A stretch of 64,000 nucleotides of DNA from Vicinamibacterales bacterium. Its GTDB lineage: Bacteria; Acidobacteriota; Vicinamibacteria; Vicinamibacterales; UBA8438. The position numbers and the translations under genes are program-made. Below are positions 40,149 to 46,006 of the stretch, in pieces. Within the stretch, counting starts at the first letter, position 1. Each line of letters starts with the position of its first letter. Location: positions 1,627,997 to 1,691,996 of the forward strand of contig OZ253543.1 in NCBI GenBank assembly GCA_965262555.1, read 5' to 3'. The notes under the pieces are model-generated. The model was given only the letters and a program-made list of their open reading frames with translations. It had not been told where the DNA came from and did not search any database.

Positions 40149-41144
40149 ATGACGACACGCGGCCTCACCGCGATCGACGGGCTTGCCGTCGGCCACGACA
40201 CCCTCGACGCCCGACCGACCGGCTGCACTGTGGTCCTGACCGAGGCGGGCGCCACCGCGACGGTCGACGTCCGGGGCGCCTCTCCCGGCACGCGCGAGAC
40301 CGCGCTGCTCCATCCGACAAACCGCGTGCAGCAGGTGCACGCCGTCGTGCTGTCCGGCGGCAGCGCGTTCGGTCTCGCCGCCGCCGACGGCGTCATGCGG
40401 TATCTCGACGAACGGGGGATCGGCTTTCCAACGGGTGGCGGCCCGGTGCCGATCGTTCCCGCCGCGATCCTGTACGACCTGACCATCGGCGACGGATCGA
40501 TCCGGCCTGACGCGGAGTGCGGCTACCGCGCGGCGCAAGCGGCCACGACGGCGGGCATCGAGGAGGGAAGCGTCGGCGCCGGTGCCGGTGCCACCGTCGG
40601 TAAGCTGGGCGGGCCCGGCCGAGCCATGAAGGGGGGCATCGGCACTGCGCTCGTCGAGCTTCCCGACGGGATGCAGGTGGCGGCGCTGATCGCGGTTAAC
40701 GCCGTCGGCGATGTCCACGATCCCGAGACCGGCGCGCTCGTCGCCGGCGTCCGGACCGCGGATGGCCGCGCGCTCGAGGGCGCCGGAGGCCTGTTCCGTC
40801 AGCCACCCGACGTACCCGGCGGGCAGAACACGACGATCGGTGTCGTGGCCACCAACGTGCCGCTCACGAAGGCGCAGCTCGGCATCGTCGCCCGGATGGC
40901 GCACGACGGTCTGGCGCTTGCCATCCGGCCGGCCCACACGCCGATGGACGGCGATACGATCTTTGCGCTCTCGACCGGTACGGCGGATGATGTGACGCCG
41001 GATACGGCCCTCCTGCGGGTCGGCGCGATAGCAGCGAACGTGACCGCCGAGGCGATCGTCCGGGCGGTGCGCGAGGCGACCGGCATCCCGGGCTACCCGG
41101 CGGTGGGAGAGCTGTCGAACGACGCGAAGGAGAACAGACGATGA
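40149..41144 (+). CDS. P1/S58 family peptidase (DmpA/ArgJ-like, self-cleaving)
   Basis: VGH, TGCTV, DVRG.SPGTRET, GGSAFGL, GAGAG, NTT autoprocessing site, HT..DGD. Confidence 0.9.
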   Translation: MTTRGLTAIDGLAVGHDTLDARPTGCTVVLTEAGATATVDVRGASPGTRETALLHPTNRVQQVHAVVLSGGSAFGLAAADGVMRYLDERGIGFPTGGGPVPIVPAAILYDLTIGDGSIRPDAECGYRAAQAATTAGIEEGSVGAGAGATVGKLGGPGRAMKGGIGTALVELPDGMQVAALIAVNAVGDVHDPETGALVAGVRTADGRALEGAGGLFRQPPDVPGGQNTTIGVVATNVPLTKAQLGIVARMAHDGLALAIRPAHTPMDGDTIFALSTGTADDVTPDTALLRVGAIAANVTAEAIVRAVREATGIPGYPAVGELSNDAKENRR

Positions 41145-42826
41145 ACGCTGTCGTGCTTGCGGCAATCGGCCTCGTGGCGATCTTCGCCGGGTACCGCTTT
41201 TACTCGTGGTTCCTGACCGAGAAGATCTATCAGCTCGACCCGAACTTCGAGACGCCGGCGCACGCGATGCGCGACGACACTGACTACGTTCCGACGAACC
41301 GCGTCGTTCTCTGGGGCCACCATTTCACGGCAGTGGCGGGCGCCGCGCCGATCATCGGCCCGAGCATCGCCGTGGTCTGGGGCTGGCTGCCCGCCTTTCT
41401 CTGGGTCGTGATCGGCACGATGTTCTTTGCCGGCGTGCATGACTTCGGCGCTATCTGGGCGAGCGTGCGGAACAAGGGGTTGTCGGTCGGCTCGCTCACG
41501 GGCGAGGTGGTAAGCCACCGGGCGCGCAATCTCTTCATGATCGTCGTCTTCTTCCTGCTGCTGATGGTGAACGCGGTGTTCGCCGTCGCCATCGCCGTCG
41601 CGTTCATCGACACGCCGGCGAGCGTCATTCCCGCCTGGACGGCGGTCTTCGTGGCGGTCGGCATCGGCATCCTGCTCTACAGAGTAGGCGTCGGGATCAC
41701 CTGGCCGACGGTCGTCGGGACGATCATCCTGTACGCGGTCATCTACCTGGGCGAACTCTTGCCGGTCACCCTGACCGAGGTGGCGGGCGTTGCGCCGGCC
41801 GCGCAGTGGATCCTGATCCTGTTCGCCTACGCCGCAGTGGCGTCGATGCTGCCGGTCTGGCTGCTGCTGCAGCCGCGCGACTACATCAACGGCATTCAGC
41901 TCTTCATCGGCCTCGGCATCCTGTACGCCGCGGTCTTCATCACCGCCCCGGTGATGGTCGCGCCGGCGATCAATCCGAATGTCCCGCCGGGGACGCCGCC
42001 GATCATGCCGCTGCTGTTCGTCACGATTGCCTGCGGCGCGATCTCGGGCTTCCATGGCCTGGTCAGCTCCGGCACCACGTCGAAACAGCTCGACAAGGAG
42101 ACCGACGCGCGCTTCGTCGGCTACCTCGGATCGCTCGGTGAGGGCGCACTCGCGATCGTGGCGATCATCGCGGTCACGGCCGGCTTCTCGATGGTCGAGT
42201 GGGAGGCGGCGTACTCCAACGCGGAGAGCTTCGGCGCGGTGGGCGGCATCAGCGCCTTCGTCGAGGGTGGCTCGCGGATCGCCGCCGCCGGCCTGGGCCT
42301 GCCAATCAGCTTCGCACAGACGCTGCTCGCGGTCATGGCGGTGCTGTTCGCGGGGACCACGATGGACGCCGGGGTCCGGCTGCAGCGGTACATCGTGCAG
42401 GAATGGGGCGCGATTTACAACATTCCGCCCCTCCAGAACGGCTATGTCGCGACCGGCATCGCGGTGGGCGCCTGCCTGGTGCTGGCGTTCGGTGCGGGGG
42501 GCGCGGACGGAACCGGCGGCATGATCATCTGGCCGCTGTTCGGCACGACGAACCAGTTGCTCGCGGGGCTGACGCTGCTCGTCATCAGCGTCATGCTCGT
42601 CAAGCTGGGACGGCCGGCGCGCTACACGCTGATCCCGATGGTCTTTGTCACGACGATGGCGCTGCTCGCCGCGCTCTACCAACTCAGCAGCCTCTACACC
42701 GAGGGGAACTACGTGCTCGTCGCGATCGACGTGGTGATCGTCATCACGGCGATCTTCGTCATGCTCGAAGCGGCCTCTGCCCTGATGCGCGAGCGGCGCG
42801 CGGCGGCGGGCATGGCGGCGTCGTAG
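41141..42826 (+). CDS. cstA: Carbon starvation protein A family transporter, copy 1
   Basis: DYVPT, GHHF..VAGAAPIIGP, LPVWLLLQPRDY, TIACGAISGFH, SSGTTSKQ, WPLFGTTNQLLA. Confidence 0.93.
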   Translation: MNAVVLAAIGLVAIFAGYRFYSWFLTEKIYQLDPNFETPAHAMRDDTDYVPTNRVVLWGHHFTAVAGAAPIIGPSIAVVWGWLPAFLWVVIGTMFFAGVHDFGAIWASVRNKGLSVGSLTGEVVSHRARNLFMIVVFFLLLMVNAVFAVAIAVAFIDTPASVIPAWTAVFVAVGIGILLYRVGVGITWPTVVGTIILYAVIYLGELLPVTLTEVAGVAPAAQWILILFAYAAVASMLPVWLLLQPRDYINGIQLFIGLGILYAAVFITAPVMVAPAINPNVPPGTPPIMPLLFVTIACGAISGFHGLVSSGTTSKQLDKETDARFVGYLGSLGEGALAIVAIIAVTAGFSMVEWEAAYSNAESFGAVGGISAFVEGGSRIAAAGLGLPISFAQTLLAVMAVLFAGTTMDAGVRLQRYIVQEWGAIYNIPPLQNGYVATGIAVGACLVLAFGAGGADGTGGMIIWPLFGTTNQLLAGLTLLVISVMLVKLGRPARYTLIPMVFVTTMALLAALYQLSSLYTEGNYVLVAIDVVIVITAIFVMLEAASALMRERRAAAGMAAS

Positions 42827-44311: not shown

Positions 44312-46006
44312 ATGACGGTCTCCCCCATCGCCGCCGCCGCCGTCTGCCTCGCGGCGTACGTCGTGGCCTACCGCTTCTACGCTCGATTCCTGGCCGACCG
44401 GATCTTCGCGATCGATCCGGCCCGGCCGACACCCGCGGTCACCCAGACCGACGGAATCGATTACGTGCCGACGAACCGGTTCGTCCTGTTCGGCCATCAG
44501 TACGCATCGATCACCGGCCTGTCGCCGATGCTCGGCCCGGCGATCGCCGTCATCTGGGGCTGGCTGCCGGCGATGATCTGGGTGGTCGCCGGCGCCATCC
44601 TCGTCGGCGCGGTGCAGGACTTCGGCGCGCTGGTCGTCTCGATCCGCGCGCGCGGCATGTCGCTCGGCCAGGTGACCGGCAACCTGGTCGGACGCCGCGG
44701 CAAGACCCTCTTCCACCTGGTGATCTTTTTCCTGATCGCGTTGGCCATGGGGGTCTTCGTGCACGTGATCGCGCTGCTCTTCTCAGCCGACTTCTATCCG
44801 GAGTCGGTTCTCCCGAGCGGCCTCCTGATCGGCGTGGCCCTTGCGATGGGGATCGCCGTCTATCGCGCCGGCGCGAGCGTCCAAACGCTGACCGTCGTTG
44901 GTCTGCTTCTCGCGCCGGCGCTGATCCTGCTGGGCGTCGAGTACCCGGTTGTCGGCCCGTCGGTCATGCAGTGGAAGTGGCTGCTCCTCGCGTACGCGTT
45001 CGCCGCGAGCGTGCTGCCGGTCTGGCTGTTGCTGCAGCCGCGCGACTACATCAACAGCCTGTTGCTGTACGTCGGCGTCGGCGCGATGTACGTCGGCTTC
45101 GTCCTGACCAATCCGTCGTTCGTCGCGCCGGCGGTCGACCTCGATCCACCCGGCGCGCCCGCGATCGTGCCGTTCGTCTTCGTCGTCATCGCATGCGGCG
45201 CGGCAAGCGGTTTCCACGCCCTGGTTTCATCGGGCACGAGCGCGAAGCAGCTTGCGAGCGAAGGGGACGCGCGCTTCGTCGGCTATGGCGCGATGATCGG
45301 CGAATCGCTCCTCGGCCTGATGGCGATCCTCGCGTGCACCGCCGGCTTCGTCTCGCGCGAGGCGTGGCTGGAGCGCTACGTCAGTTGGCAAGCGGCCGAC
45401 AGCCTGGGAAACAACATCGCCGCCTTCGTGCAGGGAGCCACCCACTTCCTCGGGGCGCTCGGGTTCCCCGAGGCGATGGCCGGCACCTTCGTCGCGGTCC
45501 TGGTGGTCTCGTTCGCCCTGACGTCGCTGGATTCAGCCACCCGCCTGCTTCGCTACAACATCTCGGAGATGGGCGAGACGCTCGGCGTCGGCGCGCTCGC
45601 CAACCGCTACGCCGCCTCCGCCATTGCGGTGGCCGCCATTTGGGCGTTCGCGTTCATCCAGGTGGACGGCGAATACGCCGGGCTGATCCTCTGGCAACTG
45701 TTCGGCACGACGAATCAGTTGCTGGCCGGCCTGGCGCTGCTCGCGATTACGCTCTACCTGCTCCGCCGCGGCAAGCCGGTCGGATGGACCGGCGCCCCGA
45801 TGTTGTTCATGCTGGCGTCGGCGCTCACGGTGATGGCGGTCAATCTGGTCGACTTCTGGACGGCACGCCAGTGGCTGCTCTTCGCCACCGGCGCGACGAT
45901 ATTCGCGCTCGCCCTCTGGCTTGCGGTGGAAGCCGCGATCGCCGTCCACCTGTTCCGGCGGCATCCGGTGATCGAGGGCCTGGATGTCGAGCTTCGCGAC
46001 CGCTGA
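44312..46006 (+). CDS. cstA: Carbon starvation protein A family transporter, copy 2
   Basis: DYVPT, GHQYASITG, LPVWLLLQPRDY, IACGAASGFH, SSGTSAKQ, WQLFGTTNQLLA. Confidence 0.9.
   Translation: MTVSPIAAAAVCLAAYVVAYRFYARFLADRIFAIDPARPTPAVTQTDGIDYVPTNRFVLFGHQYASITGLSPMLGPAIAVIWGWLPAMIWVVAGAILVGAVQDFGALVVSIRARGMSLGQVTGNLVGRRGKTLFHLVIFFLIALAMGVFVHVIALLFSADFYPESVLPSGLLIGVALAMGIAVYRAGASVQTLTVVGLLLAPALILLGVEYPVVGPSVMQWKWLLLAYAFAASVLPVWLLLQPRDYINSLLLYVGVGAMYVGFVLTNPSFVAPAVDLDPPGAPAIVPFVFVVIACGAASGFHALVSSGTSAKQLASEGDARFVGYGAMIGESLLGLMAILACTAGFVSREAWLERYVSWQAADSLGNNIAAFVQGATHFLGALGFPEAMAGTFVAVLVVSFALTSLDSATRLLRYNISEMGETLGVGALANRYAASAIAVAAIWAFAFIQVDGEYAGLILWQLFGTTNQLLAGLALLAITLYLLRRGKPVGWTGAPMLFMLASALTVMAVNLVDFWTARQWLLFATGATIFALALWLAVEAAIAVHLFRRHPVIEGLDVELRDR

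Follow-up and report, generated by a model that had tools for sequence, protein, structure and literature searches.

What does an ATPase of the ArsA/Get3 type do between two carriers of the CstA family, at a locus that holds none of the usual genes of arsenic resistance? The question is raised by five genes that lie on one strand, at positions 40149–46006, of a 64,000-nt window (GC 66–71%) of contig OZ253543.1 from the Vicinamibacterales bacterium GCA_965262555.1, "the window" meaning the whole stretch of DNA that was analyzed; the host genome measures 4.29 Mb and is 96.5% complete. As assigned from the list of open reading frames (ORFs), Pfam, and NCBIfam, the families of the five products are those named in an earlier annotation of this DNA, hereafter the original prediction: a peptidase/amidase of family S58, a first CstA-family carrier (CstA1), a small protein with a Cys-Cys end, a single-domain ArsA/Get3-type ATPase, and a second CstA-family carrier (CstA2). 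Taken as a whole, the locus is best explained as a lineage-specific five-gene version of a published module, cstA-cstX-arsA homologue, in which the ATPase would make the carrier an ATP-coupled system, an explanation to which we give about an even chance of being right. The gene identities, the conserved gene order, the intact nucleotide motifs of the ATPase, and the lack of arsenic features are established.

The core of the locus is formed by three consecutive genes on the forward strand. The first encodes CstA1, a short-form carrier of 561 aa (41141–42826; PF02554, E-value 9.2e-134). It is followed by the gene for an 86-aa protein of the cory-CC-star/DUF7990 family (42871–43131), presumably equivalent to the published "CstX" and ending in Arg-Cys-Cys-stop, which matches NF041419 with 132.3 bits (cut-off 80, E-value 4.6e-39; 131.4 bits in the whole-genome search), and then by the gene for the ATPase, a single-domain protein of 334 aa with a deviant Walker A motif (43222–44226; PF02374, E-value 2e-73). 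Flanking this trio on the same strand are the gene for the S58 peptidase upstream, an Ntn-hydrolase of the DmpA/NylC/ThnT type with 331 aa (40149–41144; PF03576, E-value 1.3e-45), and the gene for CstA2 downstream (564 aa; 44312–46006; PF02554, E-value 5.4e-126). As originally described, the stop codon of the peptidase gene overlaps the start codon of cstA1 in an ATGA at 41141–44.

The arrangement of cstA, small gene, and arsA homologue is far beyond chance. From at least 452 relatives, 80 genome loci were kept, the closest of which belong to the Vicinamibacterales (Acidobacteriota). The ATPase gene lies directly downstream of the small gene in every one of the 80 loci, and a cstA gene lies directly upstream of it in 78, the other two loci being cut at a contig end (78/78 with room); the neighborhood check on the small gene thus bears out its co-occurrence with both cstA and arsA. 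The peptidase is found in 36 of the 80 loci, a second CstA in 39, and both in 34, and the loci with a single CstA have the CstA1 type. Because the peptidase and CstA2 are restricted to these subsets, as compared with a trio that is present in all loci with room, the five-gene form is a lineage-specific extension of a three-gene core by the peptidase and CstA2. Across wider samples, NF041419 matches 33 of 301 genomes of the same phylum at E ≤0.001, 16 of them above the cut-off, and 6 of 401 genomes of a second phylum sample (Pseudomonadota), the center genome included. All five further Pseudomonadota loci have the order CstA, small gene, ATPase, with identities of 63–76% for the small protein, 37–52% for the ATPase, and 58–60% for CstA; the higher conservation of the small protein than of its neighbors would fit a protein that maintains several interfaces.

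Operons of this composition have been described before by computer analysis (Castillo & Saier 2010, Int J Microbiol 2010:187373, PMC2963123). The accessible portions of that paper report 26 operons with CstA and a single-domain ArsA homologue of ~330 aa, 24 of which also contain the ~90-aa CstX, scored as a single transmembrane segment (TMS). They describe these operons as being without ars genes, state that ars and cst genes never occur in one operon and that CstX never occurs without CstA, and record paired small paralogues as well as paired ATPases. The proposal made there is that the ArsA homologue energizes CstA with CstX as the linker. The window locus resembles the published operon in its CstA, its ~90-aa protein, its ~330-aa ArsA homologue, the lack of arsR and other ars genes, and its gene order, and differs from it in having an S58 peptidase and a second CstA. 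From its size, position, and context, we infer that the DUF7990 small protein belongs to the same family as the published CstX. The core trio is already published and catalogued, and the adaptor idea put forward in the original prediction is the 2010 proposal; what is added here, namely that the small protein and the ATPase behave as a pair and double together, that they also occur beside P1B pumps or with no transporter, and that the tail varies, sharpens that hypothesis without altering its nature. One of the published statements does not extend to the present data: the claim that there is no CstX without CstA fails for the wider DUF7990 family in the genome and metagenome samples used here.

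The ATPase has the single domain and the DTAPSGH motif (here DTAPSGHT) that were first read from the DNA, and it also has GGKGGVGKTT. In an alignment of 50 sequences, the P-loop (G14–T23) and the DTAP of switch II (D142–P145) are invariant, the switch I sequence STDPAHSL and the GHT sequence are conserved, and the enzyme looks catalytically competent. It scores 266.9 bits against TIGR00345, the family of TRC40, GET3, and ArsA (cut-off 135), as compared with 177.1 bits against TIGR04291, the family of true ArsA, for which the cut-off is 650, and it has one domain where true ArsA has two halves. Its solved relatives include 5zme (Chlamydomonas ArsA1; E-value 1.3e-56), 3zq6 (2e-54), E. coli ArsA 1f48 (3.6e-51), and 3ug6 (3.4e-49). 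We take 3zq6 and 3ug6 to be archaeal Get3 homologues, although their depositors' name for them is arsenical pump-driving ATPases.

Membership in the ArsA family is what would favor plain arsenic or antimony resistance, with the ATPase as an ArsA pump subunit and CstA as its channel. The alignment with 1f48 does not agree with such a role. The metalloid triad of E. coli ArsA presumably consists of Cys113, Cys172, and Cys422, and the Cys of the 1f48 sequence ...GASCLGPMAG, which we take to be Cys172, is aligned with the Arg of ...RSSRLGAMLG in the ATPase; no Cys is aligned in the 1f48 stretch that holds Cys113, and C39, next to switch I, is the only conserved Cys of the window family. Nor do the surroundings agree with it: the genes at 35.9–51.7 kb include no arsR, arsB, acr3, arsC, or arsD, as had been noted, and the accessible text of the 2010 paper has ars and cst genes never sharing an operon (PMC2963123). 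With one domain and a score so far below the ArsA equivalog cut-off in addition, arsenic resistance is very improbable indeed, and the earlier view that the locus is a conserved unit of another kind, whose ATPase has no ArsA cysteine triad, stands. The ArsA-ArsB(-ArsD) pump is nevertheless a useful comparison. In both systems, an ArsA-family ATPase stands beside a secondary carrier and a small Cys-bearing partner, and the shared logic is that of a carrier turned into an ATP-dependent system. The window system differs from the pump in an ATPase of one domain that has no metalloid cysteines, in the families of its carrier and its small protein, and in having no ars regulator or reductase at its locus.

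The archaeal Get3 homologues 3zq6 and 3ug6 are single-domain proteins that align with the ATPase over its full length, and it is as close to them, over the whole domain, as it is to ArsA. The ATPase might be a Get3-like biogenesis factor, a bacterial chaperone for the targeting of tail anchors or hairpins. It would bind the small protein's hydrophobic hairpin, or part of CstA, and bring it to the membrane, and its role would be in assembly of the carrier and not in its control. The CXXC motif is the zinc motif of Get3 at the dimer interface. On the window ATPase, the archaeal motif (C-EF-C in 3zq6 and 3ug6) falls on A-GSF-I, and the helical insert, LLRHRERSSRLGAMLGRFGGGRGRGDD, which is aligned with the helical subdomain of the archaeal chains, is Arg-rich and not Met/hydrophobic-rich. 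A suitable client is not evident either. The small protein does have a hydrophobic helix-turn-helix core, DLFMLFVFAELMGVPNPATYYTLEL, and was scored as a single TMS in the published analysis (PMC2963123, accessible portions); however, it has no C-terminal transmembrane anchor, the helical hairpin of its AlphaFold2 (AF2) model has charged faces and the extended tail is polar, and no tail-anchored protein is evident at the locus. We consider a Get3-like role quite unlikely. Because the metalloid Cys residues and the CXXC motif are both absent from the alignment, the ATPase, judging from its sequence, belongs neither with the metalloid-activated ArsA type nor with the zinc-bridged Get3 type.

By precomputed labels and by Atlas labels, the small protein belongs to PF25952 (DUF7990), and NF041419 is its sole match in the NCBIfam and Pfam libraries; the Pfam scan returned no family for it, the release scanned being one without a PF25952 model. 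It is a plain member of this family, with the Cys-Cys-stop end and the position before an ArsA-family gene. Its length of 86 aa and its C terminus, ...DHFRCC directly before the stop codon, are as originally described. An alignment of 59 members, each picked because it ends in CC, shows no variation at C85 and C86, and conservation extends to an FHxWH motif and to a turn of sequence PNP. The family as a whole comprises 132 representative clusters at 50% identity, of which 80 end in CC according to the sum of the tail tally; the remaining representatives are mostly apparent fragments or belong to non-CC subgroups. In the AF2 model (predicted local distance difference test, pLDDT, 87.7), the protein folds into a helical hairpin composed of helices 3–40 and 52–72, followed by an extended tail. 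A Foldseek search of the PDB with this model gave no match at E ≤0.001, a two-helix hairpin being an uninformative query.

In public records, DUF7990 proteins are often called "DNA helicase", as they are in automatic cluster names, apparently through an annotation error that has spread. A protein of 461 aa (P0121) carries the CC-star domain at residues 388–461 and may be either a fusion or a gene-calling read-through. At one related locus (L032, 8001–8367), two tandem small-protein matches could represent a duplication or a frameshifted copy.

The E. coli pairs CstA-YbdD and BtsT-YjiX have a similar layout, in which a small protein of the DUF466 family (PF04328) is encoded behind a CstA-family carrier, and both YbdD and YjiX end in Arg-Cys-Cys (Haft preprint 10.1101/2022.07.06.499078, accessible text). 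These partners matter for transport: pyruvate uptake falls to 13% of wild type in a cstA knockout and to 20% in a ybdD knockout, as stated in the accessible text of Hwang 2018 (PMC5847655). The original prediction had likened the small protein of the window to YbdD and YjiX. Homology to them is rejected here, as hhalign returns a probability of 3% and there is no PF04328 match; the RCC end and the place behind cstA are all that is shared. The two systems thus differ in that their small proteins have no detectable homology and in that E. coli has no ATPase partner. A whole-genome search of the host likewise gave no match to DUF466 (PF04328).

Both carriers are firmly within PF02554 (447.6 bits for CstA1 and 422 bits for CstA2, gathering cut-off 27), and both lie far below the cut-off of NF011590, the E. 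coli CstA equivalog (219 and 253 bits, respectively, versus 1188). They are shorter than E. coli CstA, with 561 and 564 aa as compared with 701 aa, and are 33–34% identical to it. CstA2 is a divergent paralogue, 44% identical to CstA1. Three residues, H60, C298, and H305, the latter two in the sequence ACGAxSGFH, are invariant in the CstA alignment, E. coli CstA included. No solved CstA chain was found in the copy of the PDB that was searched. The host genome as a whole has no CstA genes other than these two, and it has a single full-length ArsA-family gene, that of the ATPase.

The small protein and the ATPase form the tightest pair of the module. In distant Acidobacteriota, 6 of 10 fetched loci have the order CstA, small-1, small-2, ATPase-a, ATPase-b (L091–L094, L097, and L100), and the pattern is repeated in the metagenome loci L148–L166. 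Because small proteins and ATPases double together, this joint doubling argues for a one-to-one complex of the two. Neither small protein of the doubled loci ends in CC; one of them ends in HExHLHGV (4 loci) and the other in DAMF or DALA. Adjacency of the pair is also the rule in metagenomes, where an ATPase gene is adjacent in 40 of the 47 loci that have at least 700 nt downstream. The transporter is the more variable part. The wider-family metagenome loci that extend at least 2.5 kb upstream number 36; next to the small gene, a CstA gene is present in 10 of them, a gene for a P1B ATPase in 3, and neither CstA nor a P-type ATPase in 23. One metagenome subgroup (L114–L144) consists of a small gene with a QYDFD/G tail and an ordinary stop codon, together with an ATPase gene, no adjoining transporter, and variable neighbors. 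In two of these loci (L130 and L144), the pair lies between a major facilitator superfamily (MFS) carrier and pyruvate:ferredoxin oxidoreductase. A selenocysteine codon hidden behind the QYDFD/G end was ruled out, the stops of these relatives being a mix of TAA, TGA, and TAG, and a further metagenome "relative" (L167) looks like a chance or wrong-frame match.

Heavy-metal pumps provide a third context. At L095 (7018–10600, reverse strand), a CC-tailed member and its ATPase lie directly behind a heavy-metal P1B ATPase with no CstA nearby, at a locus that also encodes HMA domains, a Cus-like resistance-nodulation-division (RND) system, and a TonB receptor with an HMA domain. The same P1B arrangement of small protein and ATPase, again with no CstA nearby, is observed in L112, L113, and L172. 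At L096 (5318–7919), the gene for a related CC-tailed protein is preceded by those for an ArsR-type regulator and a P-type ATPase, and neither an ArsA-family ATPase nor a CstA is encoded nearby. Such neighbors raise the question of whether the module handles metals. In a metal-handling module, the tail (Cys-Cys or His-x-His-Leu-His) would bind a soft metal or metalloid, and the SIMIBI-class ATPase, in the manner of a metallochaperone NTPase, would load, unload, or sense the metal at the transporter, with Cys298, His305, and His60 of CstA, or the metal site of the P1B pump, as the candidate sites. ArsD, for comparison, hands As(III) to ArsA via vicinal cysteines. The residues that such a module would need are in part present: the CC end is invariant in the members chosen for it and FHxWH is conserved in the CC-star subfamily, one paralogue of four doubled loci ends in HExHLHGV, and CstA has one invariant Cys and two invariant His. 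They are not present throughout, as the transporter-free members have no Cys/His tails and the ATPase has no conserved metal-ligand Cys except C39. The P1B contexts with CC-tailed members, even when the ArsR-associated locus is added, are few, amounting to 5 loci from ~3 lineages, and the window genes at 35.9–51.7 kb include no metal-responsive regulator. The CstA substrates identified by experiment, moreover, are pyruvate or peptides and not metals, according to the accessible text of Hwang 2018 (PMC5847655). Metal handling is an unlikely account of the module.

A bolder generalization, which we also rate as improbable, is that the DUF7990 protein and the ArsA/Get3-like ATPase constitute a portable ATP-driven module that serves unrelated transporters, CstA carriers and P1B pumps among them, by way of the C-terminal ligand tail, Cys-Cys or His-x-His-Leu-His. 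The tail would then reach conserved Cys or His residues of the transport path and deliver or sense a soft metal or a thiol-reactive state.

Physical association of the pair was addressed by complex prediction, with two copies of the ATPase, two ATP, and the small protein as input, alignments for both proteins, and three controls. The score was 0.43 (runs 0.35, 0.43, and 0.49), as compared with 0.00 for the best of the three controls; the runs share at least 47% of their contacts, and the pLDDT of the partner is at least 46. Of the 157 solved complexes used for calibration, 116 reached the mark, as did 2 of 215 mismatched pairs. At scores of ≤0.60, where the present result falls, are found 18 of the 157 solved complexes and both of the passing mismatches, and without a high prior probability a pass in this range will be false in the majority of cases. 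The genomic pairing of the ATPase and the small protein supplies such a prior. Get3 complexes with helical partners have been solved, and the predictor's memory of them may be behind the score. The verdict on the interaction of the ATPase dimer with the small protein, which the original prediction had expected, is one of weak support.

Under the preferred explanation, an ATP-coupled CstA carrier, the ATPase dimer and one small protein per protomer would form a stoichiometric complex that docks on the cytoplasmic face of the carrier and makes uptake depend on the ATPase's ATP state. Gating or regulation of the carrier by ATP binding and hydrolysis seems slightly likelier than ATP-driven pumping of the ArsA-ArsB type. 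The Cys-Cys tail may engage the transporter, by analogy with the RCC tail of the unrelated YbdD, which would do so for E. coli CstA. The putative adaptor role that the original prediction gave to the small protein fits the synteny, the joint doubling, and the complex prediction (0.43 versus 0.00). Its further suggestions, that the small protein senses redox state or metals and that the ATPase may insert the carriers, find no support here.

In the window's lineage, an S58 amidase that is translationally coupled to cstA1 and a divergent second CstA have been added to the core trio. Because of these two additions, the locus suggests a cargo of small peptides or amides, or of pyruvate-like acids, that is processed in the cytoplasm. 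The peptidase matches PF03576 with 156.6 bits (cut-off 23.9). Among the solved matches listed, its closest relatives include nylon hydrolase 9cxr (E-value 2.8e-65), L-aminopeptidase/D-esterase 9yys (2.7e-51), and ThnT 3tm1 (7.3e-51). The sequence GGQN-TTIGVVATN of the peptidase is aligned with GMN-TTIGIVSTN of 9cxr, and the Asn-Thr site, which we take to be the self-cleavage site as in the NylC and ThnT relatives, is conserved. DmpA itself is absent among the 17 solved matches listed. The idea that the carriers feed unusual D- or beta-amino acid peptides to a DmpA-type enzyme is not supported by these matches, in which nylon hydrolases and ThnT are closest, nor by the presence of the peptidase in only 36 of the 80 loci; it appears to be an over-reading of an S58 Ntn-type amidase.

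Several observations weigh against an ATP-coupled CstA carrier with the cargo just described. The peptidase and CstA2 are missing from about half of the related loci, and the suggestion on cargo comes from the neighborhood only. The pair of small protein and ATPase is not bound to CstA, and its function may be more general than the control of a carrier. Even the pairing has its gaps, with no adjacent ATPase in 7 of the 47 metagenome loci with room, one of which looks spurious. Not every member of the wider family has the CC tail, as QYDFD/G ends are found in the transporter-free group and HxHLHGV or DAMF ends in the paired group. The modeled complex counts as weak support and the predicted fold of the partner within it is uncertain. 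Beyond the 2010 paper, a literature search, which did not cover article supplements, found no experimental work on any member.

The limits of the genes were set by comparison with orthologues. The long ORF of CstA2 opens at an upstream GTG at 44168 and so runs into arsA; because the similarity to orthologues begins at the ATG at 44312, the start of CstA2 is taken to be there. The peptidase ORF is open upstream to 39957, and the similarity to orthologues begins at or near the ATG at 40149; the 64 open codons that precede it (39957–40148, forward strand) include an ATG at 40062, after which comes a stretch that is hydrophobic and rich in Ala. A scan of 39.8–46.4 kb for promoters and terminators found 0 promoter-like and 3 terminator-like sites, as compared with 0.6 and 2.4 expected, and yielded nothing usable. 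Contigs from RNA libraries (four runs of one study) cover the peptidase gene, cstA1, the small gene, and the start of arsA, and span the junctions between peptidase and cstA1 and between cstA1, small gene, and arsA. The 3' half of arsA and most of cstA2 have little or no such cover, which is uninformative either way. These contigs are compatible with expression; they leave a single transcript unproven, and DNA carry-over is possible in libraries of this kind.

The genes that flank the cluster within 35.9–51.7 kb encode an FtsX/MacB permease, an ABC ATPase, a GDSL lipase, the product of one ORF without a family match, an M4 protease, an LVIVD-repeat protein, and a PQQ-like propeller. The GDSL lipase, the ABC ATPase, and the FtsX/MacB-type permease are encoded divergently from the cluster (35939–40077, reverse strand). 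Just downstream, on the strand opposite to the cluster, lie the genes for a thermolysin-like M4 metalloprotease of 669 aa and the LVIVD-repeat protein (46882–49940, reverse strand); secreted proteolysis would here be encoded beside a putative peptide carrier, perhaps only by coincidence. Another peptidase neighbor is seen in an acidobacterial relative with a small genome (L098, 9192–12398, forward strand), where a tricorn-type S41 protease follows the trio of CstA, small gene, and a short ArsA-like gene.

The module is common in the sampled phyla, and the window locus represents a clean, compact version of it that introduces no new principle by itself. Its interest lies in the carriers that it accompanies. 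CstA-family carriers are widespread nutrient scavengers, and the mechanism by which their CC-tailed partners, which are required in E. coli, act is not understood. An ArsA/Get3-type ATPase dedicated to a CstA carrier would be the second SIMIBI ATPase that harnesses a secondary carrier, after ArsAB. If the pair of small protein and ATPase should turn out to be portable among unrelated transporters, CstA-family uptake, including that by E. coli CstA and YbdD through convergence, would depend on an unrecognized cysteine-tail "key".

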